Part shown: piece after piece, positions 19,876 to 50,145 of the stretch
Layout of the letters: every line of letters begins with the position of its first letter
Position numbering within the stretch: position 1 is the stretch's first letter
NCBI GenBank assembly: GCA_945892985.1
Contig: CAMDDU010000003.1
Coordinates: 62,060-126,059 of the forward strand
Length of the DNA: 64,000 nucleotides
Source: Bordetella parapertussis
GTDB taxonomy: Bacteria; Pseudomonadota; Gammaproteobacteria; Burkholderiales; SG8-39
Direction of reading: 5' to 3'
Translations under genes and position numbers: made by a program
Notes under the pieces: generated by a model
Database searches by the model: none
Told to the model about the DNA's origin: nothing
The model's input: only the letters and a program-made list of their open reading frames with translations

Positions 19876-19878
19876 GTT

Positions 19879-22058: not shown

Positions 22059-22074
22059 AAGCTGTCGCGGTTTA

Positions 22075-25561
<3,487 letters not shown>

Positions 25562-33668: not shown

Positions 33669-33764
33669 TACAGGCAGCGCAGGCAAACAAAAAGGGCTCC
33701 GCGGCGCCCTTTGTTCCATTAAGGAATTTTTTGTGCCATTATGGTGCTATGGAAAAGAAACCCC

Positions 33765-34189: not shown

Positions 34190-34759
34190 TCAGTGAAGGA
34201 CGCACGATTGGGAGTCCGGTGGAACCATGGTGAGCGCGGGGCCGTGGGCATGTCGCCGAAGAAGCGGATGGTACCGCGCCGTCCGTGTGCCCCAAAGCCA
34301 CCTCCCTTCGCGGAGCGCATTCACGGTAACAAAAAGTTGTCCATGAGGCAGTACACCCCCGCCCGGTACTAACCGGTTCCCCAAAAAAAACATCGCCCGC
34401 ACCACAGGAATAGCAAAAAGCCCAGCATGGACGGAATGCACCCCAATAAGCCCATCGGTGAATATTAAGCCTGTTTCTCAGATGCACGAATAACTCGTTG
34501 CCGGCATTGCGCCTTTCTTGCCTGCCCTGGCCGCCCCAATTGCCCGGCATGCATATGGGCCGGCAGATTATGTGTTGACAGCACATACTTTTTCATCAAC
34601 AATCATCCGAAGCGTAAAGCTTGGACGCAACACACGTTTTCTGCGCAGCACATACATTTGCCCATGTCACGCGTCGCAGATCGAAAAGCACAGAGCACTG
34701 CCGGCGCCGGACATTGAGGCTTTCAATATCCATATGGTTCGATAGGAACGGGAGGGAAC

Positions 34760-35761
34760 ATGCGTTTTCGTCAAATCGCAGGCGCGTCATTCTTGCGTCG
34801 AAAGTTGTGGTCGGCCATAGCGGCCGTCCTGCTCGCTCTGTCCGGGTCCGTGATGGCGCAAAACTTCCCGTCAAGGCCGGTAAAAATCATTGTGGGATTC
34901 GCTCCGGGCGGCGGAAGCGATATTGTGGCCCGGGTACTCGCGCAAAAGTTAAGTGATGTATGGGGGCAATCGGTGGTGGTGGAAAACAAGACTGGCGCCA
35001 GCGGCATCATCGGTGCCGACGCGGTGGCGAAATCCACGCCCGACGGTTATACGCTTCTTGTCTCTTCAGCGACAAGCACCGCGGTTGCTGCCTCGCTGAA
35101 TCCCAATCTGCCATATGACGTGTTGAGGGATTTTTCAATCGTAACGGTTATCGGCACGACCCCGACCGTACTGGTGATCAATCCCGCCCTGGTACCAAAA
35201 TCGTTTAGTGAGTTCGTCTCGTACGCAAAAGCCAATCCCAACAGCACCTTCTTCGGCGGTTCAGGCATTGGCTCCACCGGGCACCTTACGGGGGAACTGT
35301 TTAACATGTCCGTCAACATCAAGACCGGTCACGTTCCCTACAAAGGGGAACCGCCCGCCCTGACGGACATTATCAGCGGCAATCTGACTTTCATGTTCTC
35401 GTCATTGCCGGTGGTATTGCCATTCGTCCGGAACGGCCAATTGCGCGGCCTTGCTGTTACCAGCCTGCAACGCTCGCCGGGGGCGCCTGAATTGCCGACA
35501 GTGGCCGAATTGGGTTTTCCCGAGATGGAAAGCGTTGCATGGAACGCACTCTATGCACCCTCCGGAGTACCCAAGCCCGTGATTGCGCGCATTCATTCTG
35601 ACGTCACGACAATTCTTCAGCTTCCCGACGTCAGGGAACGCTTCCGGCAGCTCGGAATCGAGGTTGTCGGCAACACGCCCGAGCAGGCAACCGCCTATTT
35701 AAGAGCCGAAATCACCAAGTGGGGGAAAGTTATAAGACAGGCAAATGTACGCATTGACTAG
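34760..35761 (+). CDS. Bug-family (TctC-like) substrate-binding protein
   Basis: Signal peptide, then QNFPSRPVKIIVGFAPGGGSDIVARVL...ENKTGASG. Confidence 0.85.
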   Translation: MRFRQIAGASFLRRKLWSAIAAVLLALSGSVMAQNFPSRPVKIIVGFAPGGGSDIVARVLAQKLSDVWGQSVVVENKTGASGIIGADAVAKSTPDGYTLLVSSATSTAVAASLNPNLPYDVLRDFSIVTVIGTTPTVLVINPALVPKSFSEFVSYAKANPNSTFFGGSGIGSTGHLTGELFNMSVNIKTGHVPYKGEPPALTDIISGNLTFMFSSLPVVLPFVRNGQLRGLAVTSLQRSPGAPELPTVAELGFPEMESVAWNALYAPSGVPKPVIARIHSDVTTILQLPDVRERFRQLGIEVVGNTPEQATAYLRAEITKWGKVIRQANVRID

Positions 35762-35981
35762 CCGGGCCGCCATGGTCTGTCGGCCCGATCGCGGCAATTG
35801 TCGGTGGCGAAGCAGATGAGCCATCTAAAGCCAGCCTGCGATCGACGCATGTGCCGCGCGGCAAGACCTCGCCCCGCCTAAATCGCGGAATCAGCCAGAC
35901 ATCAGCAGCAGCCGGTTCTGTGCACGTCTAACAACAAGCATCCCCCACGCGCCATCAAGATAGAAGGAAAAGGAAGAATTT

Positions 35982-37100
35982 ATGAGGATTACTGCAGTAG
36001 AGGCAATTCCGTTACGCATGCCACTTGCCCACCCCTACGAAATTTCGGTGGGTACGCGGCAAGAGGCCTACATCGTGATAGTCGTGATTCGAACCGATGA
36101 GGGGGTCGTCGGTTACGGGGACACGTCATCGGTGGACGGTATGCCCATCGCTTCAGAGACACAGGCAAGCATAGTTGCAATCGTACGCGACCATTTGTCA
36201 CCCATGCTTATAGGCGAGAATCCGCTGGAAGTTCCAAAGCTTATCGACAAAATGAATACCAGCATCTTTGGCAACAACTACGCAAAGGCTGCCATCGACA
36301 GTGCCCTCTATGATTGTGCGGGCCAAGCGCTCAATTTGCCGGTGTATATGCTCCTCGGCGGACGGCGTCGTGACACGGTTCTCTTGTCCGCCGGGGTAGG
36401 CGCGCGCGATCCGGCGATGGCCGTCAAGACTGCGGAGGACGCGCTTGCGGCAGGATATCGTTCCCTGAAGGTCAAGGTCGGGTTCGGCCACAAGCGGGAC
36501 TTTGAAAATGTCCGCGCGATACGGGATATGGCCGGCCCCGATATCCCGATCAGAATTGACGCTAACGCGGGCTGGAGTTTCGTCTCCGCGGTGCAGGCGA
36601 TACGGCGATTGGAGTCCTGCGACCTCCAGTTGGTCGAGCAGCCCCTGAAGCGTTATGACTTTGCCGGAATGGCGGCACTTGCAGCCGCCGTGGACGTGCC
36701 GATTGCGGCCGACGAGATGGTTGCCTCCCCAGAAGACACGCAGAACATGATCCGCTTTCAAGCGGCTGAAATGGTGAACATGAAGGTCATGAAGCTCGGA
36801 GGCCTGTGCCAGGCACTCCGCGCCACGCATATTCTCGATGCCTGCGACCTGCAGTATTGGGTGGGGACAATGGGTGAAACCGGAATCGGCGTCGCGGCCA
36901 ATTTGCACTTCTGTGCTGCGGTCAAGTCGCTTCCGGTTGCGAATGAAGGTGCCCGGCCCGCGCCGTATTTCCTTGGCGATGACGTGATCGAGCAGCCGTT
37001 CGTGGTCAAGGACGGGTGCGTCTCCATTGACCAGATTTCCCGGCCCGGCCTTGGCATTGAGGTGGATTGGAAACAAATTGCCCGTTATCGAATCGATTAA
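35982..37100 (+). CDS. enolase-superfamily enzyme, muconate-lactonising / dipeptide-epimerase (MLE) subgroup
   Basis: KxK motif LKVKVG, metal ligands in IRIDANAGW, LVEQP and AADE, and a second-base Lys in NMKVMKLGG. Confidence 0.75.
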   Translation: MRITAVEAIPLRMPLAHPYEISVGTRQEAYIVIVVIRTDEGVVGYGDTSSVDGMPIASETQASIVAIVRDHLSPMLIGENPLEVPKLIDKMNTSIFGNNYAKAAIDSALYDCAGQALNLPVYMLLGGRRRDTVLLSAGVGARDPAMAVKTAEDALAAGYRSLKVKVGFGHKRDFENVRAIRDMAGPDIPIRIDANAGWSFVSAVQAIRRLESCDLQLVEQPLKRYDFAGMAALAAAVDVPIAADEMVASPEDTQNMIRFQAAEMVNMKVMKLGGLCQALRATHILDACDLQYWVGTMGETGIGVAANLHFCAAVKSLPVANEGARPAPYFLGDDVIEQPFVVKDGCVSIDQISRPGLGIEVDWKQIARYRID

Positions 37101-37238
37101 GAGTGTCTCGTGCCGGGCTTACGGTCGCCAATGCAGGACGGCCGATGCGCGTCGAATGTATCCGTCGCACCGTAAGACAGACTTGAGGAGACTTTCCTGA
37201 ACTCGCGTTCGCGTACCAGCTCACCGAAAGGCTTTAAT

Positions 37239-38255
37239 ATGCATTTGTGTGCACAAAACTTCTGGTTTAGGGGAGTGCTTCGGTCCCGTAGCTATTCGAT
37301 CCGCCTTCTCGCCTGCACCTTGGCGTTTGCGTTCATCGGCACTGCCACAGCCACCGCACAGGAGTATCCAGTGCGCGCTATAAAAATTGTTGTGGCGTCC
37401 CCGCCGGGCGGGGGTACTGATATTCTCGGAAGGCTGATTGCGGAACGACTGGTTGCTAAGTGGGGGCAGCCGGCGTTCGTGGAAAACCGCGGAGGAAACG
37501 CGGGAAACATTGGTGCAGAAGCGGTGTCGAAGTCTGCGCCAGATGGGTACACCATTCTTCTAGTAGCTCAGGGCGCGCTAGTAATCAATAAGAATCTCTA
37601 CAAAAAGCTTAGCTACGACCCGGAGAGCTTTGTGCCTGTGTCGCTAGTGGCAGTAACGCCTGCAGTTTTGATACTGAACCCAAAAATGCCTGCACAGAAC
37701 CTAGGCGAGCTGATTGCTTATGCGAAGATCAATCCAAACAAGCTAAATTACGCAACTCAGGGCGTGGGCACTTCGGCCCATCTGACGGCAGAACTGTTCA
37801 ATTCGATGGCGGGCGTGCGCACCGTTCATGTGCCTTATAGAGGCACAAGCCCTATGCTTGTAGATCTGATAAGCGGTGAAGTGTCGATGACGTTCGGTGA
37901 ACTTGCGACAGCCGGGCCGTACGTTCGCGCGGGGAAACTGAAAGTGATAGCAATCGCAAGTGAGACGAGGAGTGCTTTGGCACCAGAACTGCCAACCTTA
38001 GCTGAGGTGCTCCCCGGTTTTACTTCAATTACTTGGTGGGGGATGGTCGCACCTGCGGGTACTCCAGTATCGATAGCGGCAAAACTTTCAGCCGCCGTGA
38101 CTGAGGCGCTAAAGCATCCTGAGGTGGCTCGGCGACTAAGTGAGCTGAGTATTGAGGGCATCGGCGGTACTCCACAGGACCTAGTGAATTTTATGCGTCA
38201 GGAGCGAACGCTTTGGGGGAAGGTGATTCGCGATACCGGTGCGAGTGCGGACTAA
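37239..38255 (+). CDS. Bug-family (TctC-like) substrate-binding protein
   Basis: Signal peptide ending ATATAQEYPVRAIKIVVASPPGGGTDILGRLI...ENRGGNAG. It is the first gene of the ~50% GC block. Confidence 0.85.
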   Translation: MHLCAQNFWFRGVLRSRSYSIRLLACTLAFAFIGTATATAQEYPVRAIKIVVASPPGGGTDILGRLIAERLVAKWGQPAFVENRGGNAGNIGAEAVSKSAPDGYTILLVAQGALVINKNLYKKLSYDPESFVPVSLVAVTPAVLILNPKMPAQNLGELIAYAKINPNKLNYATQGVGTSAHLTAELFNSMAGVRTVHVPYRGTSPMLVDLISGEVSMTFGELATAGPYVRAGKLKVIAIASETRSALAPELPTLAEVLPGFTSITWWGMVAPAGTPVSIAAKLSAAVTEALKHPEVARRLSELSIEGIGGTPQDLVNFMRQERTLWGKVIRDTGASAD

Positions 38256-38259
38256 TGCT

Positions 38260-39093
38260 ATGCAGATAAAGCCTATAACCAGTGTGATCGGCGCGGAAGT
38301 GATCGGAGTCGATTTGTTGGAGCCGCTGGACGAGCTGATGTTCAAGCGCATTGAACAAGCTTGGCACGATAATGTAATTCTGCTTTTCCGCGGACAGAAT
38401 CTCGACGAGAATCAGCAGGCGAGCTTCTGCGCACGCTTCGGAAAGTTGGTGGCCTCGCTCAACGCAGAGATGTTGAATCGGCCTGGCCAACATCCGGCTG
38501 TGATGTATATTTCGAACATCGTTGAGAATGGTAAGTTAATCGGGGCGCTGCCAGATGGTGAAGTGGTATTCCACTCCGATCAGTGCCACGCTGAGTGCCC
38601 GGCAATGGCGACCATGCTCTATGCGCTAGAAATTCCGTTTAGCGGTGGTGACACTTTATTTGCAAACATGTATGCCGCATACGATTCTCTGCCCCTAGAT
38701 CTAAAGAATAAATTGAATGGAAGATACGCTGAGAATGTCTACGATTACGCCCCAGAGACTATCGCGCGCGGCGGTTCTAGAATTCGAGAAGGTGTGAAGC
38801 ATTGTGCCCACCCAGTGTTCCGTACCCATCCAGTTACCGGGAAGAAGGCGCTCTACGTTAATCGTTTGATGACGGACCACATTGTCGGTTTGCCTGAATT
38901 CGAGAGTCGCGAAATCCTAGACTTCCTATTCATACATGTCGAGCAGCCGGAATTTGTGTATTCCCATCACTGGGCAGTCGGTGATTTGATGCTCTGGGAC
39001 AACCGGTGCAGCCTGCATGCGCGCACTAATTTCGACGCTTCGGCACGTCGTAAGTTGAGGCGAATTACCGTGCAAGGAGAGCGACCGAGCTAA
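38260..39093 (+). CDS. TauD/TfdA-family Fe(II)/2-oxoglutarate dioxygenase
   Basis: MQIKPITSVIGAEVIGVDL, HxD in VFHSDQCH, distal His in CSLHARTNF, and Arg in RRKLRRITV. It starts 4 nt after the Bug gene stop. Confidence 0.8.
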   Translation: MQIKPITSVIGAEVIGVDLLEPLDELMFKRIEQAWHDNVILLFRGQNLDENQQASFCARFGKLVASLNAEMLNRPGQHPAVMYISNIVENGKLIGALPDGEVVFHSDQCHAECPAMATMLYALEIPFSGGDTLFANMYAAYDSLPLDLKNKLNGRYAENVYDYAPETIARGGSRIREGVKHCAHPVFRTHPVTGKKALYVNRLMTDHIVGLPEFESREILDFLFIHVEQPEFVYSHHWAVGDLMLWDNRCSLHARTNFDASARRKLRRITVQGERPS

Positions 39094-39378
39094 GCGCAAG
39101 GATTTTCCTTCATATCATGAGGTTAATTGGATCTATTGCTCCATTTTGTTTCAGATTAATCAGCTAGTTGAGCTGGAACTGTCAGGACTCCAATTGTCGG
39201 TTAGCCCAGCGTTGGCGGCGACACCACCTCTGGTCTCGTTCACGCCGAACTGCATGCCCTACCCCGCGCTAAATTCCACCAATCCGCCCCCGTTTTTTAA
39301 ACTCGCTCCATCTGGCGGGCTTTAAACGGTTAATCGAAGCGCAATATCAACCAATAGATACTAGGACCGGAGCCGAAC

Positions 39379-40566
39379 ATGGACGTTGCACTCAAGGGAA
39401 TCAAGGTGCTGGACCTAACCAGCTATATAGCAGGTCCGTTTGCAACCATGTTGCTAGGAGATCTTGGGGCTGAAATACTTAAGATTGAGCAGCCTGGTCA
39501 GGGAGACGTGTTCCGCTCCGCCGATAAGAATTCTTCTCTATACAGCCCACTATTCCGTGGATTCAACCGCAACAAACGAAGCATGACCCTCAACCTAGCC
39601 TGCGCTGAGGGTAAGGAGATATTCTGGAAATTGCTGAAATCGGCGGATGTGGTAGTCGAAAATTTCCGTCCCGGCGTGGTCGAACGGTTGGGAATAGACT
39701 ACGAGAAAGTTAAGGCGAGAAACCCACGTATAGTGTATTGCTCTATTTCTGCTTTCGGGCAGCAAGGGCCATACAGCGCAAAGCCGGGCTACGACACGAT
39801 CGGACAGTCGCTAAGCGGCTTGCTAAGCCTGCTGACCAACCTAGCTGACCCGAAGGGTCCAGGCGCCCCTTTTTCAGATCACTTGGGTGGACTATACGGC
39901 TGCTACGGAATACTGGGAGCCTTGATGGCACGCGAGCGTACCGGGGTTGGCCAAAGGGTAGAAACATCCTTGCTTGCTGCCACCATGAGCTTTATCGGCT
40001 TCAGCATCACCCAGTATCTGGACCTGGGTGCGAAGGAAGTACCTAATATGGTCAGCCGCCTTCACCAGGCGCAAATTTACGCCTTCATCTCCCAGGATGG
40101 ATTACCCTTTGTCGTGCACCTGTCCCACCCGAGGAAATTTTGGGAGGGCCTTACTCAGACCATCGGTCGCCTAGATCTACGCGAGGATCCTCGCTTCAAG
40201 GAAGCGCACTCCCGCGAAGAAAACTACTTTCAACTAGAGGCCATTCTCAGAGAAATCATTCAAACAAATACACGGGACTACTGGATCGCCAAGTTTGAAG
40301 AGAACGACGTGCCTTGTGCTCCGATTAAACGAATTGACGAAGTACTTGTCGATCCACAGGTCGAGTTCCTGGACCGGCTGGTGAATGTGGAAGGGCCCAA
40401 TGGAGAAAAGGTTCACTTCGTCAGGAACGGTGTCACATTTAGCGCAACGCCCACCGTCGAACCACAACGCCCCCCGTCGTTGGGTGAGCACAGCCTGGAA
40501 ACTCTGAGGGCGATCGGCTACTCCGACTTGGAGATTGAGAAACTTCAGTCACAGGGCGTCATATAG
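39379..40566 (+). CDS. family III CoA-transferase (CaiB/BaiF type)
   Basis: GIKVLDLTSYIAGPFATMLLGDLGAEILKIE and VVENFRPGV are characteristic. Confidence 0.8.
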   Translation: MDVALKGIKVLDLTSYIAGPFATMLLGDLGAEILKIEQPGQGDVFRSADKNSSLYSPLFRGFNRNKRSMTLNLACAEGKEIFWKLLKSADVVVENFRPGVVERLGIDYEKVKARNPRIVYCSISAFGQQGPYSAKPGYDTIGQSLSGLLSLLTNLADPKGPGAPFSDHLGGLYGCYGILGALMARERTGVGQRVETSLLAATMSFIGFSITQYLDLGAKEVPNMVSRLHQAQIYAFISQDGLPFVVHLSHPRKFWEGLTQTIGRLDLREDPRFKEAHSREENYFQLEAILREIIQTNTRDYWIAKFEENDVPCAPIKRIDEVLVDPQVEFLDRLVNVEGPNGEKVHFVRNGVTFSATPTVEPQRPPSLGEHSLETLRAIGYSDLEIEKLQSQGVI

Positions 40567-40971
40567 GAAGACGTCCACGATAGGTAAATGATCTACCCTT
40601 TACCTGAACATCGGTAGCAATTGAAGTGATAGGGTAGATCGTTGTAGGGAATGTTGCTAACCGCTGCTCTGAGCCAGAAGTACGTTTGTAACAGCTCGGC
40701 TGTTGATCAGCAGAAAACACGCTCGCTTCAACTGGTACCGATTTAAGGGGCTAGATCACCTTCGATGCTGTACATTTTGAATGGTTCGTTGCATTTGCTT
40801 TATCCAACGGTAGATAAGGAGTTTTCGTTTAAATAGATATTGTTTAGTAGTTCTATTTTTAGTGGCCTTTTTGAAAGTAAGAAATTAATTCTTTGTATTG
40901 TTGCTGTCGCTCATAAAAAGTTACAGATCGGGCAGTTCGATAGTTCACGATGTTTTTTGGAGGGGGGTACC

Positions 40972-42066
40972 ATGCAATTAACGAATTTCTTCTTTCGCGG
41001 CCTGAAGGCTTTTTCGCTGGTGGCTATTGCCGCAGTCTTGGGTGGTTCGCCTGTTGCTTATTCGCAGGCAGGGGCAGGAAAGGGCAAACTTGCGGCAATC
41101 ATTGAGGCCGCATCTAAAGAGAAGGAGGTTGTTTTTCAGGCACCTGATCCAGAGACAGGCCTTCCTGCTGCTGACTTCCTGAGAGATATGGCTGCCATAA
41201 CGGAGCGGCTATACGGTATCAAGGTCAACATTCGAATCGACAATTCGTTAAATTTCCCAGCATCTGTCGCGAAGGCGATCACTGAGATACGTTCTGGTGC
41301 TGCGCCCAGCTATGACCTTATGTTCCAGAATGCCGTATCCGGACTTCCTCTTTACGTTAACAAGGCCTATGAGCAGATTCCTTGGTTAGAACTGTTTCCA
41401 CAACTTACGCCCCAGGATCTAGCTTGGAATGGCATTACGCCCATCGTAGACACGCAATTCATACTACCGATCTACAACACGCGCCTAGTCAGGCCACAGG
41501 ACGTGCCCAAATCTTGGGATGATCTGCTCAACCCTAGGTGGAAGGGAAAGCTTGGGGTGCTGGTTAACTACGAACCTTGGGCGCTCCTTTCGCAGCCTAA
41601 CGCCTGGGGCGAGGCGAAGACTATGGCTTTCCTAAAGCGTCTGCTGGAGCAGTCACCGAAGCTTGGCCGGCTCCCCGAGTCCCATGAGCGTGTTCTTTCG
41701 GGTGAGACACCTATAGCTTCTTTTGGACAACGTGAGCGGACGCTGTACTACAAGGAACAACGTAGCGCCCCAATGGGGGTGGTTGAATCGGCTGACCCGG
41801 CGCTGGTGTACGTCTATATCTTCGTGGTCCCTAAGGGAGCAAAGAATAAGAACGCAGCGATGCTCGTTGCTGCAGCGATGATGTCAAAAGAGGGGCAGGA
41901 GCTTCACCAAAAATATCGGAATTCCACATCCATGTTCCGCCCGGGAACACCTGCAGCTGCTTTTGCAAAGACTCACAAGGTCATTGTCCCGGATCTTGAC
42001 TTTATTACGAGCAAGGACTACGCGGAGTTGACCAAACGGATCAGCAGCATTTTGGCGCAGCGGTAG
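40972..42066 (+). CDS. ABC transporter periplasmic substrate-binding protein (Fe3+/polyamine-type fold, substrate unknown)
   Basis: The start is taken at MQLTNFFFRGLKAFSLVAIAAVLGGSPVAYS (GGAGGGGGG upstream). Followed by a matching permease and ATPase. Confidence 0.7.
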   Translation: MQLTNFFFRGLKAFSLVAIAAVLGGSPVAYSQAGAGKGKLAAIIEAASKEKEVVFQAPDPETGLPAADFLRDMAAITERLYGIKVNIRIDNSLNFPASVAKAITEIRSGAAPSYDLMFQNAVSGLPLYVNKAYEQIPWLELFPQLTPQDLAWNGITPIVDTQFILPIYNTRLVRPQDVPKSWDDLLNPRWKGKLGVLVNYEPWALLSQPNAWGEAKTMAFLKRLLEQSPKLGRLPESHERVLSGETPIASFGQRERTLYYKEQRSAPMGVVESADPALVYVYIFVVPKGAKNKNAAMLVAAAMMSKEGQELHQKYRNSTSMFRPGTPAAAFAKTHKVIVPDLDFITSKDYAELTKRISSILAQR

Positions 42067-42307
42067 CAGTGGATGCGGGTTCTCTTTGCGGTGGTATTTA
42101 GTCGACTTAGCATCATCTCTTTGTTGATCACTCGCGCTTTCAAGAGCCTATTTCGTAAGTGCGATCTGTATGTAGGTGTCCTTGAAAAATCCGTGACGTG
42201 GGAAATTCTTATGGGCGTGTCTCGGAGCTTAAACAGAATACTGATTATGAGATGAATCATCGAGTCATGAAAATTCAATGCTGTTTAATTGAAACGGGAC
42301 GGATTGG

Positions 42308-44008
42308 ATGAGGGTATCGCGTGCTTTTATGCCGGTTTTGGGGGTTGCGCTTGTCGGTGTTTTGCTCATTCTGGGCCCACTGTTGGCAACTGCTTGGATC
42401 AGTGTCACAAATGGCACTCCTGGCCATGGTGAACTTACCATGGAGAATTTCACCAAGGTGGCAACAGATCCGTTCGGTTACAAGGTATTGCTCAATACAT
42501 TAGTATTTGCCGTAGGAGCTACGGTAATAGCTATAGGCATCGGTGCGCCTCTTGCCTGGGCCGTAGCCCGTACCGATTTGCCTTTCCGTAAGTCAGTGAT
42601 CCTATTGCTTGGAATGATTCTGATTGTTCCTGGTTTTCTTCAGGCAATGGGTTGGGCTTTAATGCTAAGCCCTAACATCGGGATCGTTAATCGTGCGTTG
42701 ATAGAACTGTTTGAATTAGAGAACGCACCGTTTAACATCTACAGTCTCGCCGGAATGACCTTTGCGGAAGGCCTAAGCCTTGTGCCCCCGGCTTATTTCA
42801 TCATCTCTGCCGTATTCGCCGGGATGGATGGCAGCTTAGAGGAGGCGGCATATATGAGCGGGGCAGGTAAGTTTCGCACTTTTTTTCGAGTGAACTTACC
42901 TCTCGCTTGGCCGGCCATCGTTGCGGCAGCCATTTACGTATTTGTACTGGCATTCGCGGTGTTCGAAGTACCAATGGTGCTTGGGTTTCCGGATCGGATA
43001 TTTGTTTTCAGCACTATGCTCTATTTTCTAGTTCATTTGCAAAGTGCGGGTTTGCCAGAGTACGGTATTGCGGCATCTTATGGGGCGGTAGTGATGATAG
43101 CTAGCTTGGTGATGGCTGTTTATTACTCCCGCCTTATCCGCAACAGTAGGAAATACGCGACGATAACGGGCAAGGGGCGGCGCAGTAAATTGTTGTCGCT
43201 AGGTAAGTGGAGGCCTTTCGCCGTTATGCTTGTGGTGCTCTACTTTCTGTTGGCGTTGGGCCTACCCTTACTTGTTCTGATTTATTATTCTTTGTTGCCG
43301 TTCTTTCAGCTTCCTTCCATGGAAGCGCTAGGCTCGATGACATTGCAGAACTACGTCAACATTTACACTCGTCAGGGATTTCGGCCGCTGCTGAATACTG
43401 GTATTCTCGTGGCTGTCGTGCCTGTGGTGGTTGTATTTATTTCTGGCGCGATATCGTGGGTTGTGGTGCGTTCCCGCATTCGCGGTCGGTCGATAATTGA
43501 CAACATCGCCTTCTTGCCGATCGCGGTTCCTCGGATCGTCCTTGCAGTGTCTATCCTTTATCTTGCTCTGGCGATGCGTGAGTTCCTTCCTATCTATGGC
43601 ACGCTAATGGTCGTTGCCATCGCGCATGTCATTGCTTTTATGAGCTTTGCTACACGCACGCTAAATGGGGCGATGCTCCAAATTCACCCTGATCTTGAGG
43701 ATTCGGGGCGTCTGAGTGGAGCGTCTCTCTCGCGTGTCCTCAGAAAGATCACGGGCCCGTTGCTAAAGCCAGCGCTGTTTTCTGCCTGGTTTTGGGTGAT
43801 GCTATTGTCGTTCCGCGAGGTAACTATGGCGGTAATTCTTACTTCGGTGGATAGCGTTGTGCTCCCTGTGCAGATATGGAACCTCTGGAATACTGGATCG
43901 ACGCACCAGGCGGCGGCTGGGGCGGTGGTCCTCGCGGTAATCGCGTTGGCTTTGATGCTCATGATGCGGCGCCTTACTGAGCGTGTGTTTGCCCCTGGTG
44001 GGCATTGA
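42308..44008 (+). CDS. ABC transporter permease, fused two-domain type (FbpB/AfuB-like)
   Basis: 566 aa, about 12 helices, and two EAA-like loops (EEAAYMSGAGKFRTFFRV and LEDSGRLSGASLSRVLRKI). Confidence 0.8.
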   Translation: MRVSRAFMPVLGVALVGVLLILGPLLATAWISVTNGTPGHGELTMENFTKVATDPFGYKVLLNTLVFAVGATVIAIGIGAPLAWAVARTDLPFRKSVILLLGMILIVPGFLQAMGWALMLSPNIGIVNRALIELFELENAPFNIYSLAGMTFAEGLSLVPPAYFIISAVFAGMDGSLEEAAYMSGAGKFRTFFRVNLPLAWPAIVAAAIYVFVLAFAVFEVPMVLGFPDRIFVFSTMLYFLVHLQSAGLPEYGIAASYGAVVMIASLVMAVYYSRLIRNSRKYATITGKGRRSKLLSLGKWRPFAVMLVVLYFLLALGLPLLVLIYYSLLPFFQLPSMEALGSMTLQNYVNIYTRQGFRPLLNTGILVAVVPVVVVFISGAISWVVVRSRIRGRSIIDNIAFLPIAVPRIVLAVSILYLALAMREFLPIYGTLMVVAIAHVIAFMSFATRTLNGAMLQIHPDLEDSGRLSGASLSRVLRKITGPLLKPALFSAWFWVMLLSFREVTMAVILTSVDSVVLPVQIWNLWNTGSTHQAAAGAVVLAVIALALMLMMRRLTERVFAPGGH

Positions 44009-44033
44009 CGTAACGGGGAATCCGGACTGGAAT

Positions 44034-45128
44034 ATGGGAATGCTTAAGATCACCAATCTGTCTAAGAAATTCGAGGTGACGGATGGCAAGACAATTGCGG
44101 TGCGAAACCTTGATCTCGAGGTGGAGAAGGGAAAATTTTTTGTGTTGTTAGGCCCTAGCGGATGCGGTAAATCGACACTGTTGCGTTGCGTGGCGGGGTT
44201 GGAAGGAATCGAGGAAGGGGAGATTTCTCTTGATGGTCGGTTGGTAAGCTCCGCTGAGCGGTGCTTTTCTGTTGATCCCGAAGACCGTGGGATTGCGATG
44301 GTGTTCCAGACGTATGCGATCTGGCCCCATATGACGGTGTTTGACAACGTCGCTTTTCCTTTGACTGAGGCGAAGAACGCAAACCTTTCACGAGCCAAGG
44401 TTCAAGCCAAAGTGAAGGACATTCTCGCGCTGGTACGGCTTGCAGACTATGGAGCGTATTCAGCAGCAACCATGAGCGGTGGTCAACAACAGCGGATAGC
44501 TCTTGCACGAGCCCTCGTGCGCGAACCTAAGTTACTGCTAATGGATGAGCCTCTTAGCAATCTAGATGCAAAGCTACGTGAGGAGATGCGCGACGAGATC
44601 AAGCAATTGACCCGTGCCCTAGGCGTGACCACGCTGCACGTTACTCACGATCAGACTGAAGCTATGGCTCTTGCTGATTCGCTGGCGGTTATGTCTGCTG
44701 GAAAGATCCTGCAATTAGGCGAGCCTGAACATCTCTATCGGCGTCCCGTGAATCGGATGGTTGCTGAGTTCCTTGGGCGGACGAATTGGTTGACTGGCAA
44801 AGTGGATGGAACGAACCATGCGCAGACAGAGATGGGTGGCGTATCTGTGATACTACCGGCGTCCACGGCTCTGGGGTCAGATATTCGTTTGGGAATACGA
44901 CCGGAATGGGCGGAACTGACTCGCGATCCGCACGGTGGACTGGACGAATACCGCGGCATAGTGACTGGCAGGAGTTTTCTCGGGGACATCGTTGTTTATA
45001 AGGTTAAGGTGGGCGGTGTGGAACTGTTGATTAAATCTAATGCGCCTGACATACCAGCGTATGGGGAGGTGACCGTATTGGTTCCTCCGGACAGGTGGGT
45101 TGTGTTCTCTGGTTTGGGGGCGGAGTAG
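44034..45128 (+). CDS. ABC transporter ATP-binding protein (PotA/FbpC-like with C-terminal TOBE-type domain)
   Basis: Walker A GPSGCGKST, signature MSGGQQQRIALAR and Walker B LLMDEP. Confidence 0.85.
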   Translation: MGMLKITNLSKKFEVTDGKTIAVRNLDLEVEKGKFFVLLGPSGCGKSTLLRCVAGLEGIEEGEISLDGRLVSSAERCFSVDPEDRGIAMVFQTYAIWPHMTVFDNVAFPLTEAKNANLSRAKVQAKVKDILALVRLADYGAYSAATMSGGQQQRIALARALVREPKLLLMDEPLSNLDAKLREEMRDEIKQLTRALGVTTLHVTHDQTEAMALADSLAVMSAGKILQLGEPEHLYRRPVNRMVAEFLGRTNWLTGKVDGTNHAQTEMGGVSVILPASTALGSDIRLGIRPEWAELTRDPHGGLDEYRGIVTGRSFLGDIVVYKVKVGGVELLIKSNAPDIPAYGEVTVLVPPDRWVVFSGLGAE

Positions 45129-45209
45129 GTCGTATCACCGCCAGAATTTGGGGCAGATGCAATGATGCAGCTGCTGGTAAGGGGCAACCGGTAAGTTAAG
45201 GGGGGGAGA

Positions 45210-46340
45210 ATGTCGTTAAAGGACCGCTATGCAATTGTCGGCGTAGGCAACACCCGTGTTGGAAGGATTCCGGAGATGAGCGACTACGGACTCCAAGTGC
45301 AGGCCGCTAAGCTTGCGATGGACGATGCCGGTATGACCAAGGCGGACATCGACGGCATGATTACCCATAGCCATATGTTGGGGGGGGTTCGGGTGCATCA
45401 CCAACGAGTCGCGCAGCGGTTAGGCATGAACACACGGTTCGGAGTATCTATTTCTAGCGGTGGCTCCACCTCGTGCATGATGGCGCAATTAGCTGCCGCG
45501 ACCATCGAGGCCGGAATGTGTGAGGCCGTGCTGTGTGTGCACGGTGATAAGTCTTTGACCCGCGGTGGCGATACGCATGATGGGGATAAGGAATTCGGGC
45601 CCGAGTACGGAATGATTGGCGCTGCTGCAAATCACGCCTTCGGCCTGACGCGACATATGCATGAATTTGGCACGACGCATGATCAACTTGGCGCGATTGC
45701 CGTTGCGGCGCGTAAGCATGCAATGCTGACGCCGCACGCGCAAATTAAGAAGCCGATGACGCTGGACGATTATCACAACTCACCCTGGATCGTCTGGCCT
45801 TACCACATGTTTGACTGCTGCTTGCGCAGTGATGGAGCTGCCGCTTTTATCGTTACATCTGCGGAGCGCGCTCGTGACCTGAAGACCCGTCCGGTGTACA
45901 TCATGGGTATGGGCACAGCCAATAATTCACGTGGTCCGTATTTTGGTAACCATCCAATTGTAACGGGCGGTAAGGAATCGGGTGAACAAGCATTTAGCAT
46001 GGCTGGTTTAACACCCAAGGATATCGATTTTGCGCAGATCTACGACTGCTTCACTTACATCGCAATGGTGACCTTGGAGGATTATGGGTTTTGTAAGAAA
46101 GGCGAGGGCGGTCCATTTGTCACTGGAGGCCGTATTGAATTGGGCGGTGAACTGCCGATGAATACTGCTGGTGGTATGTTGTCCGAGGGTTATGTGGAAG
46201 GAATGTTAGGCATCGTCGAGGCGGTGCGGCAGCTGCGCGGCGAGTGCGGTGCACGGCAGGTTAAGGATGCCGAGATTGGTATCGTCAGTGGTAATGGAGG
46301 TAACGCCGTGTGCCATTCCACTCTAATTCTGCGCCGCTAG
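45210..46340 (+). CDS. thiolase-like protein of the SCP-x / DitF / Ltp type, canonical catalytic cysteines not evident
   Basis: Thiolase-fold N-terminus YAIVGVGNTRVGR. At the expected nucleophile site the sequence is SISSGGSTS, and the C-terminal CxGGG-type motif reads SGNGGN (by-eye alignment only). Confidence 0.65.
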   Translation: MSLKDRYAIVGVGNTRVGRIPEMSDYGLQVQAAKLAMDDAGMTKADIDGMITHSHMLGGVRVHHQRVAQRLGMNTRFGVSISSGGSTSCMMAQLAAATIEAGMCEAVLCVHGDKSLTRGGDTHDGDKEFGPEYGMIGAAANHAFGLTRHMHEFGTTHDQLGAIAVAARKHAMLTPHAQIKKPMTLDDYHNSPWIVWPYHMFDCCLRSDGAAAFIVTSAERARDLKTRPVYIMGMGTANNSRGPYFGNHPIVTGGKESGEQAFSMAGLTPKDIDFAQIYDCFTYIAMVTLEDYGFCKKGEGGPFVTGGRIELGGELPMNTAGGMLSEGYVEGMLGIVEAVRQLRGECGARQVKDAEIGIVSGNGGNAVCHSTLILRR

Positions 46341-46362
46341 ACGGCGCGCAGAAAGGAAAACC

Positions 46363-46770
46363 ATGATTGAATATCACAAGCCGCTTCCTGTACCTAATGA
46401 AGACTCCGTACCTTTCTGGGAGGCGGCAAAGCGACACGAACTGTCGTTACAGCAATGCAAGGCGTGCAGCGCCTTCAGGTTTCCCCCGGTACCTTTGTGC
46501 CCTGAGTGCAATGTGATGGGTGGCGATTGGACCCGGGTCAAAGGGCAGGGAAAGATTTACTCCTTTGTCGTGTTTCATCGTGCCTTCCACAAAGGTTTTG
46601 AGGACAAGCTACCCTATGCCGTGGCACTGGTGGAGCTAGACGAAGGCCCGCGCGTGATGAGTAATATTATCGGCGTGCCGCCGGATCAGCTGAAATGCGA
46701 TATGCGAGTGGAGGCATTTTACGATGACGTAACTCCCGAGGTGACGTTGCCACAGTTCAGGCTAGTGTGA
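46363..46770 (+). CDS. DUF35 Zn-ribbon/OB-fold protein (partner of thiolase-like enzymes)
   Basis: PFWEAAKRHELSLQQCKACSAFRFPPVPLCPECNV (C4 zinc ribbon) followed by an OB-fold segment GKIYSFVVFH. Confidence 0.8.
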   Translation: MIEYHKPLPVPNEDSVPFWEAAKRHELSLQQCKACSAFRFPPVPLCPECNVMGGDWTRVKGQGKIYSFVVFHRAFHKGFEDKLPYAVALVELDEGPRVMSNIIGVPPDQLKCDMRVEAFYDDVTPEVTLPQFRLV

Positions 46771-46784
46771 ATGCCCGGGGGCTT

Positions 46785-48227
46785 TCATGTCATCGTAAAG
46801 GAGGGAGGGATGATCTCGTTCACCGATTTGCCGGTCCAGTGCCAAGTCGGAACCGCGTCCCAGAGGGTGTTGGCCCCAGTTTGTAGCTTTTCCATCAAGG
46901 GTTCTTCCTGGGTACGGAGGTAGTTCCCGTTCGAAACTAGAACCTCTCCATTGACAATGACGGTCTTAATATCACGGCTGGTTGCGCTTTCAACCAGCGA
47001 GCGTACTGGGTCGCGAACAGCGCCAAAGGCGATGTTGGTCAAGTCGATGACAATTATGTCCGCCTTGGCGCCCGGGCTTAGACGGCCAATGTCATCCCGC
47101 CCTAGGAGGCGTGCACCGCCTAGTGTTGCAGCATTAAAAACGTCTCGTGGATGACCAGAAGTGAACTTGCGATCTGCCATGCGTGAAGCAATGGAGGCAC
47201 ACCGCATCTCAGAGATCATGTCCTTCGGGTAGGTATCCGTTCCAAGCGACATTGGAATGCCAGCGTCCTTGTATCGGTCGAGTGATTCCATCACGATGCC
47301 AAGAGTCATGTATTTAAGCGGGCTGTATGACACAGCGGAACCTGAGTCTGCGATGATGGCGAGGTCGTTTCCATAGGGGTAGTTCACCCAACTATGATGG
47401 TTTAGAAAAATGCAGTGCGCGAGCGAGGTTCGCGGGCCTAGAATTCCACTGCGCTGTAGAAGCTCGATCGGCGAGCAGCGGTGCCGGCGCAGAATCTCGT
47501 GAAACTCGAGTAGGTTCATCGCTGTATGGATCTGGATCGGGATGCCGATGTCGTCCGCTATCGGTTTTACCTTAGCTAGGGTTTCTGGCGTGCAGGTGTC
47601 TACCTGTCCCGGAAATAGCATGGCTGTCACGAGCGGATTGTTTGATGCGTGCAGTTTTTTGGCGAATGCGAGCGCCTTAGCCATTCGCTCGGAGCCACGC
47701 TCCTCATTCCACTGGTAGTGTTGCCGTCCTTCCGCGTCGAAATAGTAATCCGCATCTCGGAAGCGCAGACCGGTGACGCAGCGAATTCCGACGTCGGCAA
47801 CGAGGTCTACGTAGTCTTGTAGCCCTTTTTCGGCCCCGCCATAATCAAGTACTGTGGTTGAACCACCCTTAAGGCAGTGGATCAGGCAGAAACGCACGGA
47901 CACATCCAACGTTTCCAAGTGATGGGGAACGTGCTTGTCCTTCATTGGGCCCGCATGCGATAGGTAGTTCGAGCCCAGGAAGTCAGGTTTGTCTGCATCG
48001 GTAAGCATGTAGTCGCCGGCGTTGCTCCCAGTGTGGACGTGCGAATTGATGAATCCGGGGGAAATCAGTGATCCGGGGGCGTCGATCGTCCGGTCAACAG
48101 CTCCGGCGTATTCTTTACCAACGAAAACGATATGGTCATTCTCGAAGACGACGGAGCCGTTTTGGATGACTTCATGCTGCTTTCCATCGAACCCGATAAC
48201 GTACTTTCCGCGGAGCAAGGTTTTCAT
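46785..48227 (-). CDS. amidohydrolase-superfamily protein (chlorohydrolase / aminohydrolase, ATZ-TRZ/SsnA-like)
   Basis: SPGFINSHVHTG (HxH metal motif). 480 aa. Convergent with the DUF35 gene, leaving only 14 nt between the stops. Confidence 0.7.
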   Translation of the reverse strand: MKTLLRGKYVIGFDGKQHEVIQNGSVVFENDHIVFVGKEYAGAVDRTIDAPGSLISPGFINSHVHTGSNAGDYMLTDADKPDFLGSNYLSHAGPMKDKHVPHHLETLDVSVRFCLIHCLKGGSTTVLDYGGAEKGLQDYVDLVADVGIRCVTGLRFRDADYYFDAEGRQHYQWNEERGSERMAKALAFAKKLHASNNPLVTAMLFPGQVDTCTPETLAKVKPIADDIGIPIQIHTAMNLLEFHEILRRHRCSPIELLQRSGILGPRTSLAHCIFLNHHSWVNYPYGNDLAIIADSGSAVSYSPLKYMTLGIVMESLDRYKDAGIPMSLGTDTYPKDMISEMRCASIASRMADRKFTSGHPRDVFNAATLGGARLLGRDDIGRLSPGAKADIIVIDLTNIAFGAVRDPVRSLVESATSRDIKTVIVNGEVLVSNGNYLRTQEEPLMEKLQTGANTLWDAVPTWHWTGKSVNEIIPPSFTMT

Positions 48228-48261
48228 AACATATAGTCCCGATGAGATTGCAAGGTGTTGA

Positions 48262-48441
48262 TTTCCACTGAATTGTGAGCCGGGTTTTTCATTGAATTTT
48301 GAGCCACCCTGTTTGAATCTTTATTATGACTCAGGTTGTGGATATCTTTCTGGTTCTGGACTCCTTTTTCGGTTGAGTTGAGCTGCTCTTGAAGCGGTAA
48401 CTCTTGTTCCCGGTCTCAAGGATGTGGCAATGGTGGGTGCG
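48262..48441 (-). mobile_element. IS21-family remnant: last 36 codons of istB plus the terminal repeat region
   Basis: Minus-strand translation of 48441..48331 is RTHHCHILETGNKSYRFKSSSTQPKKESRTRKISTT-stop, matching the IstB C-terminal pattern (L)THH.HI.E..G.SYR(F/L)K. Homology is cut by an in-frame TGA at its 5' side. Downstream are two copies of TGAATTKTGAGCC (48269-48281, 48293-48305). Confidence 0.7.
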
Positions 48442-48540
48442 ACTTGTTCAAACAACTAAAAGCCAGTTGTGCCGCATGGGTTTCAAGCGCTTTCTCCAGA
48501 ATACAATGGTTGGGCGCGTTGCCCTGGGTCGGGCTGTTTC

Positions 48541-49983
48541 TCAACGCATGTTCACATTTTTAAACGGTAATGCGCGTAAATCCGCCGTTGCCGGCCCCGG
48601 CGCATCGCAGTCGATAATTTGGACGCATAGCGGGCTAAAGGCGGCGCGGAAGCGATTTTTGGCTTTTACGCACAGCAGCCTGGTGGCGCTGAGATTTATT
48701 CCGTGCAGTTCGAAGAACGCGGGGTCATCCGCGGGCTTTCTATCACTAGCGACGATAACTTGTATTCCACCCACTTCGAGCACCGCAGTTGCGCCAAGAC
48801 ATACTTGTGCACCGAAATCAAACTGACCACGATTTTTATATTGACCATCCGTTAAACGAAGGACGCGCGCGGGCACCTTAACCATGGCGCCAAAATCACG
48901 GCTTGTCCGTGCGCCGAACTCAGCGTCAATCGACGCGCCAGTGCCAGCCTGTCTGGCCCTTTGGACAAGGGGTGCATCGGCGAAAAATGCGAATACAACG
49001 GCTTGCGGATGTTTGAACTCAAGCAGCGCCCGAAAAAGCGTGGTCGAGTCGGCGGCACCGCCTGAGCCAGGATTGTCGGCGGAGTCGATGATGGCAACTA
49101 GCCCGGGTGGGGCGAGGAGGGCCTGGCCAAGCGCGACGTTCGGACCGGGCAGGCTAACCCGGAAATCGTTTTTTCTTTCCTGCCAGGCGTGCGCCAGCGC
49201 AATAGCGGCATGGCGCGCAGCCGATTCTTCCTTGGCCCAGACCATTACCTTTGCCGCACATTGCGGACTGTCGGCGTAGGGAAAACCGCCGCAGAGCGAA
49301 ACGTCGAGTACCCCGGCGCCCTCGGCTTCGCGCGCTGCGAGCATCAAGCCGCGCATTGGTTCGCTATCGGTCCGCATGTTAAAACTGGATAAAACCATGC
49401 CGGTGGAGACGATCGTGCAATGCGGCGCCGGATCTCCCGAGGCGATCCGGGCCAGAGTCTTGAGGAGTCTGGCGGCGGTGGCGCGCAGGTCTGACGCGCA
49501 ATTGGTGCGCGAAACGGTGGCAAAGTCGAGCAATTCGGCTATTCCAGGGTGCAGATTGGCGTGCAAGGCGAAACTGGCGGCAAGAGGTGTGTTGCCGATG
49601 GCCCGACGTACTGCGCGTAGAAGGTCAATATCTGGAGATACGCGCTCACTTGTGATGGCGGCACCATGCAGGCAAATGTAGACCGCATCCCATCGGTCCT
49701 GGGCGAGCTCCGTGCAAATTTCAGACACGATGCGCCCAAACATGGCCTCTTCAATCGGCCCTCCGGGCATGGCAGCCGCACAACGCAAAACGCTTACGTC
49801 CCAATCGTAATTTGCGGCAATAAAATCATTAACCGCTGCGAGTTCCGTTTCCCCGTCCGCAGACGTGTTCAGTGCCTCAGTTCCTTTTTGCCACATCAGG
49901 CCTTCGAAGGAATCGAGTGTGGTGGGAGCGGGACTGAACGCATTGCCTTGAAACCAAAAACGCGCGACTGCGAGTTTTTTCAT
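48541..49983 (-). CDS. M81-family metallopeptidase (MlrC-like)
   Basis: MKKLAVARFWFQGNAFSP resembles the family N-terminus (...HETNTFSP). 480 aa, with the ICLHGA region and an MlrC-like C-terminal domain. Confidence 0.6.
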   Translation of the reverse strand: MKKLAVARFWFQGNAFSPAPTTLDSFEGLMWQKGTEALNTSADGETELAAVNDFIAANYDWDVSVLRCAAAMPGGPIEEAMFGRIVSEICTELAQDRWDAVYICLHGAAITSERVSPDIDLLRAVRRAIGNTPLAASFALHANLHPGIAELLDFATVSRTNCASDLRATAARLLKTLARIASGDPAPHCTIVSTGMVLSSFNMRTDSEPMRGLMLAAREAEGAGVLDVSLCGGFPYADSPQCAAKVMVWAKEESAARHAAIALAHAWQERKNDFRVSLPGPNVALGQALLAPPGLVAIIDSADNPGSGGAADSTTLFRALLEFKHPQAVVFAFFADAPLVQRARQAGTGASIDAEFGARTSRDFGAMVKVPARVLRLTDGQYKNRGQFDFGAQVCLGATAVLEVGGIQVIVASDRKPADDPAFFELHGINLSATRLLCVKAKNRFRAAFSPLCVQIIDCDAPGPATADLRALPFKNVNMR

Positions 49984-50145
49984 TCCTCTTCCCTAATCCG
50001 GGTGTTTCGTACGCGAGCCGGGATCGGAGGCAATGCGCTGAGGCGGATATGGGGGCGATGTTCGGTTCATGCGGCGACGCCGTGGTAAAGGAAGAATAGG
50101 GGATACAGATGTACAATTCCTGCACGAACGCGCGGTGGATGGTGC

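Follow-up and report, generated by a model that had tools for sequence, protein, structure and literature searches.

A putative CoA-transferase-coupled aldolase module for the cleavage of an imported non-steroid carboxylic acid

The stretch of DNA analyzed here (the window) comprises 64,000 nucleotides of contig CAMDDU010000003.1, an assembly listed as Bordetella parapertussis, and contains between positions 37239 and 48227 a block of nine genes that had originally been predicted to form an uncharacterized catabolic module. Central to this block are a gene for a thiolase-fold protein with an aldolase-type active site (45210..46340, plus strand; Pfam Thiolase_C_1, 177 bits), a gene for a stand-alone DUF35 protein that is its predicted partner subunit (46363..46770, plus strand; Pfam zf-ChsH2 and OB_ChsH2_C), and a gene for a family III (CaiB/BaiF/Frc) coenzyme A (CoA) transferase (39379..40566, plus strand; Pfam CoA_transf_3, 373 bits over profile positions 1-366/366). 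We read the block as a CoA-transferase-coupled beta-hydroxyacyl-CoA retro-aldolase module that would take up a non-steroid carboxylic acid and cleave it at a C-C bond, and we assign this reading a probability of roughly 0.55. The observations that carry it are the active-site identity of the thiolase-like protein, its fold, and the linkage of its gene to the others.

Active site and fold of the thiolase-like protein

The original prediction had noted by eye that the thiolase-like protein lacks the nucleophilic Cys of thiolases, quoting the motifs SISSGGSTS and SGNGGN, and both motifs are indeed present in the translation. Alignment places Gly85 at the position of the nucleophilic Cys of the true thiolases 7yvy and BbsB, and this residue is invariant in a set of 117 full-length homologues with 49-99% identity to the window protein (117/117), as are Tyr278 and Asp279. 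The C-terminal CxG Cys is likewise absent, as had been stated, but this carries no information, since 7yvy and BbsB (7pxp), both true thiolases of the same branch, lack it too. The description of the protein as Cys-less was imprecise, since it retains Cys280 in a YDCF motif, at the position of the catalytic acid Cys304 of CtSal, the bile-acid C5 side-chain aldolase of Comamonas testosteroni. The first residue of this motif, Tyr278, corresponds to Tyr302 of CtSal and aligns with the His of the HDAF motif in 7yvy and BbsB, while Tyr328 aligns with the His of their GHP motif. Both tyrosines also have counterparts in TcLtp2, the steroid C3 side-chain aldolase of Thermomonospora curvata (Y278 with Y294 and Y328 with Y344, the alignment being ungapped around both), in which Tyr294/Tyr344 is the catalytic pair (PMC12329534). 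For CtSal, mutagenesis has shown Tyr302 and Cys304 (YDCY) to be essential; the enzyme has Gln in place of the second Tyr, and the Gly at its nucleophile position precludes thiolysis (PMC12329534). As judged by alignment, the window protein combines a Sal-type Cys280 with an Ltp2-type second Tyr328, a putative hybrid catalytic set.

Across the homologues, residues 85/278/280/328 are G-Y-C-H in 60, G-Y-C-Y in 32, G-Y-S-Y in 16, G-Y-C-G in seven, and G-Y-A-Y and G-Y-P-Y in a single protein each. Every homologue keeps Cys280 or Tyr328, and both are lost in 0/117; the associated Fisher p of 3e-8 is inflated by shared ancestry and overstates the support because the homologues are phylogenetically related. 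This pattern fits an enzyme that would need one general acid, provided from either position.

The fold comparisons are in line with the residues. Sequence searches of the PDB ranked 4u4e first (5.5e-79), followed by TcLtp2 (6ok1_A, 1e-60) and CtSal (9myr_A, 1.9e-52), with the true thiolases below them (7yvy, 1e-45; BbsB, 7pxp, 9e-36; the archaeal thiolase, 2e-34). An AlphaFold model of the protein (predicted local distance difference test, pLDDT, 81; predicted template modelling score, pTM, 0.87) was found by Foldseek to be closest to the same three structures, 4u4e, CtSal 9myr, and TcLtp2 6ok1 (template modelling [TM] scores of 0.86-0.89), above all true thiolases. The likeness to Ltp2-type retro-aldolases that had been proposed for this protein therefore stands, both in the two tyrosine matches and in the fold ranking, and by residue and predicted-fold criteria we place the protein among the Ltp2/Sal kind of thiolase-fold aldolases.

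Two other chemistries for this fold seem very improbable. One is a genuine thiolase performing a retro-Claisen reaction like BbsAB or the archaeal DUF35-thiolase, with another Cys serving as the nucleophile. Databases name such proteins acetyl-CoA acetyltransferase, the best NCBIfam match is to the model of that name, PRK06158, and Cys89 and Cys203 lie close to the active-site region. However, PRK06158 scores only 341 bits against a cut-off of 421 and all other thiolase models also fall below their cut-offs, Cys89 is present in only 37/117 homologues, both oxyanion/base His residues are replaced by Tyr, and CtSal, with the same Gly as the invariant one found here, cannot thiolyse (PMC12329534). 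Taken together, these sequence features effectively exclude a true thiolase. The other is that of the PhlABC/MucABC type, with the protein acting as a C-acyltransferase without CoA or as a scaffold, or else an aldol condensation in biosynthesis. The fold search also returned PhlC and MucABC components as structural relatives (TM 0.81-0.84), and PhlB is a DUF35 protein, but the sequence match to PhlC is much weaker and confined to the C-terminal half (E 9e-21), its nucleophile Cys88 is at a position occupied by Gly in the window protein, and there is no PhlA/KAS-III-like gene in the block or the related loci. The consistent presence of a neighboring CoA-transferase also argues for CoA-ester chemistry.

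The DUF35 gene begins 22 nt downstream of the thiolase-like gene and encodes a protein of 135 aa with an OB fold and a canonical C4 zinc ribbon (C32-x2-C35-x10-C46-x2-C49). Its top PDB matches are the partners of the two aldolases, ChsH2(DUF35) (6ok1_B, 2e-30) and Shy(DUF35) (9myr_B, 1e-28). The domain is free-standing, rather than fused to a MaoC hydratase as in ChsH2 and Shy, and neither Pfam nor gene calls revealed a MaoC gene in the block.

Conserved linkage and the organization of the block

Related loci were collected from a species-representative genome scan, which yielded 80, and from contig look-ups, after which they numbered about 98; among the look-ups were one plasmid locus and four nearly identical copies of the window. 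The neighborhood counts refer to the 72 distinct loci that have 4 kb or more of sequence to each side. The close relatives all come from metagenome-assembled genomes (MAGs) of Binatia, Thermodesulfobacteriota, and Alpha- and Betaproteobacteria. In keeping with the pairing that had been predicted, the DUF35 gene directly follows the thiolase-like gene in 72/72 loci. A family III CoA-transferase gene is found within 10 kb in 51/72, including 45/46 loci in which the thiolase-like protein has 49-53% identity to that of the window and 5/25 at 66-79% (L005 among them), a group made up mostly of Binatia, and the transferases near the thiolase-like gene are 44-68% identical to the window's own. All-against-all clustering of the neighborhood ORFs further revealed at least 25 loci in which the genes run CoA-transferase, TctC, thiolase-like, DUF35. 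This association of the core genes is far beyond chance.

The two nearest independent relatives, L007 (same sequence as L001; 83% identity) and L005 (79%), have the fused-permease ATP-binding cassette (ABC) genes at 70-77%, the convergent amidohydrolase gene at 64-69%, and then the CoA-transferase gene at 65-68%. Orthologues of the ABC binding protein (71-72%) lie beside the thiolase-like gene in both L001/L007 and L005. The same loci have orthologues of the fused permease (73-77%), for which homologues of 33-37% identity were also found in 10/46 distant loci and L091; an orthologue of the ATPase (70%) is present in L001/L007. Among the more distant loci, TauD orthologues with 47-48% identity lie beside the triad in L038, L047, and L079, and L087 contains a contiguous run of genes for isochorismatase, TauD, GMC oxidoreductase, CoA-transferase, the thiolase-like protein, and DUF35. 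Elsewhere, the oxygenase next to the triad is of the luciferase-like (LLM) monooxygenase or the Rieske type. Thus, the conserved unit consists of the CoA-transferase, the thiolase-like/DUF35 aldolase-like pair, and a carboxylate receptor (TctC or an ABC system), while the enzymes that install a hydroxyl or hydrolyse an amide differ from one lineage to another. The best plasmid-borne homologue (47%), from the cultured Variovorax SRS16, has its pair flanked by genes for CoA-transferases, crotonase, and MaoC hydratase; these MaoC genes represent a steroid-type route to a beta-hydroxyacyl-CoA, and the context differs from that of the window.

Several lineages carry further neighbors. In L008-L029 and L066 (MAGs of Binatia and Thermodesulfobacteriota), pairs 70-74% identical to the window's, with no nearby CoA-transferase, lie in a different context, with recurring neighbors that resemble UbiD-like decarboxylase and carbonic anhydrase (by eye, from the sequences of the ORF clusters) together with a small Oxidored_molyb protein and a molybdenum hydroxylase (Pfam). 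The Beijerinckiaceae MAGs L031, L036, L061, L064, and L069 have a second CoA-transferase-like gene and an acyl-CoA synthetase gene downstream of the cassette, the latter resembling the malonyl-CoA synthetase MatB (by eye), and two cupin genes plus a Rieske oxygenase gene upstream. Molybdenum hydroxylases, extra amidohydrolases, and a polysaccharide-deacetylase-like gene occur near the closest relatives, and none of these is in the window. The neighbors of the closest relatives are suggestive of a nitrogen-containing acid and of a possible link to N-heterocycles.

In the window itself, gene identities were derived from the ORF listing and Pfam, and the starts of three genes were refined from gene calls on near-identical metagenome contigs (e.g. 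L092). Such contigs are present in several metagenome assemblies, which indicates that the window derives from an uncultured organism; the locus is found in the ENA assemblies ERZ27280265, ERZ27280287, and ERZ27280192. The plus-strand series opens with a gene for a TphC-like periplasmic carboxylate-binding protein of the TctC/Bug family (37239..38255; Pfam TctC, 243 bits), followed by one for a TauD/TfdA-family Fe(II)/2-oxoglutarate dioxygenase (38260..39093 within ORF 38239-39093; Pfam TauD, 219 bits), whose corrected start lies 4 nt past the TctC stop. Downstream of the CoA-transferase gene are those for an ABC substrate-binding protein of the Fe3+/polyamine/2-aminoethylphosphonate-type cluster (40972..42066, with the start corrected to 40972 in ORF 40840-42066; Pfam SBP_bac_6/8), a fused two-domain permease (42308..44008; two BPD_transp_1 stretches in Pfam), and an ATPase with a TOBE domain (43989..45128, with the start corrected to 43989 from the L092 gene calls in ORF 43983-45128; Pfam ABC_tran and TOBE_2), all on the plus strand. 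On the minus strand, a PRK06151-like amidohydrolase gene (46785..48227; Pfam Amidohydro_1) converges on the aldolase pair, and the 14-nt spacing that had been noted between its stop (46785) and that of DUF35 (46770) holds. Pfam supports all nine genes as originally placed, apart from the slightly corrected start codons, as well as the two separate uptake components, the Bug protein and the Fe3+/polyamine-type ABC set.

The block had been described as having about 50% GC, a slight overstatement: the genes have 51-55% GC, and 2-kb windows fall to 0.50 because the plus-strand series is interrupted by three AT-rich gaps of 285, 405, and 241 nt (41-50% GC). Nonetheless, its composition is distinct from that of the flanks, as GC at third codon positions (GC3) is 0.55-0.62 from 37239 to about 51216 and 0.65-0.78 in the flanking housekeeping genes. 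Owing to the three long gaps, the block probably comprises several transcription units and not one tight operon. An Rfam search of 33500-50500 for a riboswitch or RNA leader gave no matches at E up to 1, promoter and terminator scans found sites that were fewer or no more numerous than in shuffled sequence, and a repeat search for a shared operator returned only short matches at chance level. The coherence that had been claimed for the nine-gene set can be upheld for the linkage of its core, but not for a single tight operon with all members equally linked, given the gaps and the patchy occurrence of TauD and the amidohydrolase.

Several of these points weigh against a single retro-aldolase module. 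There is no regulator gene within 10 kb on either side of the CoA-transferase gene, which together with the 241-405-nt gaps makes co-expression uncertain. About 20 Binatia-type loci with 70-74% identity have no CoA-transferase within 10 kb. TauD is found in only about five distant loci and is missing from the closest relatives L005 and L007, while the amidohydrolase is confined to the window and its two nearest relatives, L001/L007 and L005, where it has the same convergent position, and is absent from all distant ones; since neither is conserved in most loci, their place in the pathway must be regarded as tentative. In the aldolase itself, the CoA-pyrophosphate Arg of CtSal (R216) corresponds to Pro192, even though most homologues have Arg at this position. 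Finally, TbSLP, a protein sharing the YDCF motif of the window protein, has weak malonyl-CoA decarboxylase activity (PMC12329534), which leaves room for non-aldolase chemistry.

The same gaps, the convergent amidohydrolase gene, and the missing TauD and amidohydrolase genes in relatives would also be expected if the block were a mosaic of two or three independent modules (TctC-TauD; the CoA-transferase; the ABC genes with the aldolase pair; the amidohydrolase) acting on different compounds, and it is relevant in this regard that genomes of this kind carry very many Bug and family III transferase genes (PMC2864759). We consider a mosaic doubtful though quite conceivable, since GC3 is uniform over 37239-51216, the same families re-assemble in varied orders in independent lineages (L007, L005, L087, L038, L047, L051, and L091), and the identity of the CoA-transferase (65-68%) tracks that of the thiolase-like protein (79-83%) in the nearest relatives.

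A proposed route from uptake to C-C cleavage

For a retro-aldolase module, we propose that the TphC-like TctC protein, the ABC system, or both would bind the acid for uptake, after which the TauD dioxygenase would hydroxylate it as the free acid, unless the substrate already carries a beta-hydroxyl. The CoA-transferase would next form the beta-hydroxyacyl-CoA without ATP, and the predicted aldolase-DUF35 complex would split this thioester into a short acyl-CoA and an aldehyde or ketone, with Tyr278 deprotonating the beta-hydroxyl and Cys280 and/or Tyr328 protonating the enolate. The short acyl-CoA would probably be re-used as the CoA donor for the next substrate molecule, and in this lineage's version of the route, the amidohydrolase without its usual Glu may remove an amide or amidine function. 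We infer the order of these steps, the recycling of CoA, and the roles of TauD and the amidohydrolase. The order given in the original prediction (import, CoA transfer, hydroxylation, C-C cleavage) is plausible; we place hydroxylation at the free-acid stage because TauD keeps the Arg that binds the anionic group of the substrate.

TauD probably supplies the hydroxyl. The protein is 32% identical to E. coli TauD, and its putative metal triad H105/D107/H253 matches H99/D101/H255 of that enzyme, as R264/R268 match R266/R270; R264, aligned with TauD R266, is the 2-oxoglutarate Arg, and the second Arg, which is also kept, would suit a free acid with an anionic group as the substrate. The contacts to taurine are not kept (E. 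coli TauD H70 is Ser and Y73 is His), the best PDB match is RdpA (6d1o, 3e-45), and all equivalog scores are below cut-off. Consequently, taurine dioxygenase was rejected as an identity (NF007104, 178 bits against a 313-bit cut-off, with the taurine contacts lost), as was gamma-butyrobetaine hydroxylase, from family cut-offs and contact residues. A carnitine route (gamma-butyrobetaine to carnitine, carnitinyl-CoA, and then betaine aldehyde plus acetyl-CoA) was also considered because a GMC oxidoreductase gene adjoins TauD in L087, but it was set aside as speculation, as this TauD differs from the gamma-butyrobetaine hydroxylase type and neither importer is of the betaine type.

In the CoA-transferase, D167 occupies the position of Asp169, the catalytic residue of E. 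coli Frc, whereas the glycine-rich insertion of Frc is missing, with an alignment gap at GGNAGGGGQPG. The protein falls below every NCBIfam equivalog cut-off, and formyl-CoA transferase, and with it an oxalate identity, was rejected both on the score for that model (237 bits against 504) and on the absent glycine loop.

The best relatives of the transferase in NCBIfam and the PDB are nevertheless formyl-CoA and dicarboxylate transferases. This is one of the points in favor of a decarboxylase cycle, in which the thiolase-fold protein would decarboxylate a beta-carboxyacyl-CoA of the malonyl-CoA type and the CoA-transferase would recycle the resulting acyl-CoA for the next dicarboxylate in the manner of Frc/Oxc. 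The TctC protein resembles a binder of a dicarboxylate (terephthalate), the five Beijerinckiaceae loci have a gene for a MatB-like malonyl-CoA synthetase in the vicinity of the module (by eye), and the TbSLP that decarboxylates malonyl-CoA likewise has no nucleophile. Its rate is only 0.005 s-1, however, and CtSal has no such activity (PMC12329534). In addition, the invariant Tyr278 would serve as a base for a beta-hydroxyl and has no obvious role in decarboxylation, and enzymes that install a hydroxyl (TauD, LLM, Rieske, MaoC) recur beside the module. We regard a decarboxylase cycle as unlikely.

The amidohydrolase scores 411 bits with NF004801, just below the cut-off of 416. The original prediction had called it ATZ/TRZ-like, which is correct with respect to its metal ligands (HxH/His/His/Asp), as the H-V-H, I-H-T, A-H-C, and G-T-D-T motifs are all kept (alignment by eye), but not with respect to the HxxE glutamate. 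This Glu is catalytic and part of the motif that defines amidohydrolases of the ATZ/TRZ type. The window protein has H-T-A-M-N at this site and the orthologues in L001/L005/L007 have H-A-A-M, and since the Glu is missing, a standard deaminase or chlorohydrolase is unlikely. The genes compared were 46785-48227 (minus strand) of the window, 11607-13049 and 4121-5731 of L001/L007, and 11589-13031 of L005; within this PRK06151-like group, a paralogue in L001/L007 keeps H-V-Y-E, while the amidohydrolase orthologues have H-[T/A]-A-M-N. Such a loss of HxxE suggests a changed chemistry in the group.

With respect to uptake, the TctC protein matches the terephthalate-binding proteins 8hka (E 2e-81) and 7ndr (7e-75), with about half of the aligned positions identical by eye. 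The pocket of TphC includes P86, Q150, T155, and T242 (PMC8556258). In the window protein, Q150 and T242 are kept, T155 is Ser, and P86A, F30S, F194T, and N197E are found. Terephthalate was rejected as the ligand because of these altered pocket residues; the protein is a relative of TphC, but its signature is not that of a terephthalate binder. The changes point to a related but different dicarboxylate, possibly less planar or bearing a cation. The replacement of Asn197 with Glu might accommodate a cationic group. Three TctC/Bug genes are found inside 8 kb (30872-35761 and 37239-38255), the genes annotated over the 15-60 kb part of the window include none for TctA/TctB membrane proteins, and the TctC/Bug binding proteins of the window appear to be orphans. 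The ABC binding protein has only weak PDB matches (best E 6e-6) and no informative solved relative.

Relation to described systems and other features of the window

To our knowledge, only two thiolase-fold aldolases have been characterized biochemically, both of which are steroid-specific and have a hydratase-fused DUF35. The first, TcLtp2-ChsH2(DUF35) (6ok1), shares with the window pair the SCP2-type thiolase fold, the Gly at the nucleophile site, both catalytic Tyr residues, and a C4 DUF35. It differs in sequence (about 34% identity; YDHF instead of YDCF) and in the arrangement of its DUF35, which is the C-terminal domain of a MaoC hydratase and not a free protein. Unlike the TcLtp2 system, the window block has no steroid genes, acyl-CoA dehydrogenase, or hydratase, and activation is predicted to occur by CoA transfer rather than ligation. 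The second, CtSal-Shy(DUF35) (9myr), has in Y302/C304 the equivalents of Y278/C280, the Gly in common, and a TM score of 0.89, but only 32% identity. It carries Gln at the position of Tyr328 and the CoA-binding Arg216 at that of Pro192, and the DUF35 of Shy, which is joined to the hydratase, has a zinc site of the Cys3His kind, whereas that of the window is C4 and free. The closest solved structure, 4u4e of Sphaerobacter thermophilus (40% identity, TM 0.86), also lacks a nucleophilic Cys and has Y-D-S-F, and its crystal structure is annotated only as a putative thiolase.

A separate DUF35 subunit is likewise present in the benzoylsuccinyl-CoA thiolase BbsAB and in the archaeal thiolase/HMG-CoA (3-hydroxy-3-methylglutaryl-CoA) synthase/DUF35 complex, and the Bbs pathway includes a family III CoA-transferase as well. 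BbsB and the archaeal thiolase keep the nucleophilic Cys and both His residues and are therefore true thiolases, unlike the window protein. In logic, the proposed route resembles Frc with oxalyl-CoA decarboxylase and succinate-hydroxymethylglutarate CoA-transferase with HMG-CoA lyase, in which the transferase loads a polar acid and cleavage regenerates the donor acyl-CoA. The cleaving enzymes in those cases are a thiamine diphosphate (ThDP)-dependent decarboxylase and a TIM-barrel lyase, whereas here it would be a thiolase-fold protein with DUF35, and the window transferase lacks the glycine loop of Frc.

The genes annotated over 15-60 kb of the window and those of the related loci included no steroid-catabolism families. 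The statement that the gene combination matches no described pathway also agrees with the literature, as searches on DUF35, thiolase(-like) aldolases, CoA-transferase, and TctC for a pathway or module of this kind gave only steroid systems; an apparent mention of DUF35 in a fitness-genomics preprint was actually DUF3584. As far as sequence can tell, the window system departs from the characterized aldolases in its free DUF35 and its lack of steroid context, and also in having a hybrid catalytic set and a partner CoA-transferase.

The chemistry as such holds no surprise, but the locus is a sound lead into a large group of mis-annotated enzymes. Together with about 90 relatives, it represents a large sister group in which DUF35 is free, a CoA-transferase is the partner, and a steroid context is missing. 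In the source databases and NCBI family models, these proteins go by the names acetyl-CoA acetyltransferase or thiolase family protein, even though the active site argues against thiolysis. A single characterized member would correct this widespread mis-annotation and define a new substrate class for the chemistry. The group could also be a source of aldolases for forming C-C bonds on CoA esters, and the hybrid active site and the Cys280/Tyr328 covariation bear on evolution from SCP2 thiolases. A broader proposal, which we offer as a possibility with rather less than an even chance, is that a family III CoA-transferase and a carboxylate-binding protein join a thiolase-fold aldolase and its free DUF35 in a widespread ATP-independent "CoA-shuttle aldolase" module. 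It would cut a C2/C3 unit from polar beta-hydroxy acids, with an oxygenase (TauD here; LLM or Rieske elsewhere) that would introduce the hydroxyl in place of the dehydrogenase and hydratase steps of beta-oxidation. If so, Ltp2/Sal enzymes would be a general bacterial tool for C-C cleavage in Binatia, Alpha-, and Betaproteobacteria, rather than a steroid speciality.

Two genes adjoining the block were also considered as members. Upstream, a gene for an MR_MLE protein (enolase superfamily, MLE subgroup; 35982..37100, plus strand; Pfam MR_MLE_N/C; top PDB match 2p88, E 7e-62) has relatives of 26-32% identity near the module in 9/46 distant loci and a GC3 of 0.67, like the flank rather than the block; it may belong to the system as an accessory member. 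Downstream, the membership of a gene for an MlrC-like M81 metallopeptidase (48541..49983, minus strand; Pfam DUF1485 and MlrC_C) is uncertain. It lies on the strand of the amidohydrolase gene with a GC3 of 0.60, matching the block, and it was not found near homologous modules elsewhere.

The window also contains a complete known 2-aminoethylphosphonate catabolic cluster (16707-25561), which encodes the PhnW transaminase, a PsrA-type Fe-alcohol dehydrogenase, PhnE, PhnD, a GntR/FCD regulator, the PhnA phosphonoacetate hydrolase, and the PhnY phosphonoacetaldehyde dehydrogenase. All six of the proteins submitted to NCBIfam scored above cut-offs (6/6), while the regulator was identified by Pfam only. 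The cluster is followed by a gene for a Na/Pi cotransporter with PhoU domains. The nine-gene block is flanked by genes for a tetratricopeptide repeat (TPR) protein with a C-terminal 2-oxoglutarate-Fe(II) oxygenase domain (32337-33668) and a JmjC-domain protein (50146-51216), and just upstream, at about 33741-34088 (coordinates converted from the L092 gene calls), are a ParD-like antitoxin ORF and an ORF of 115 aa.

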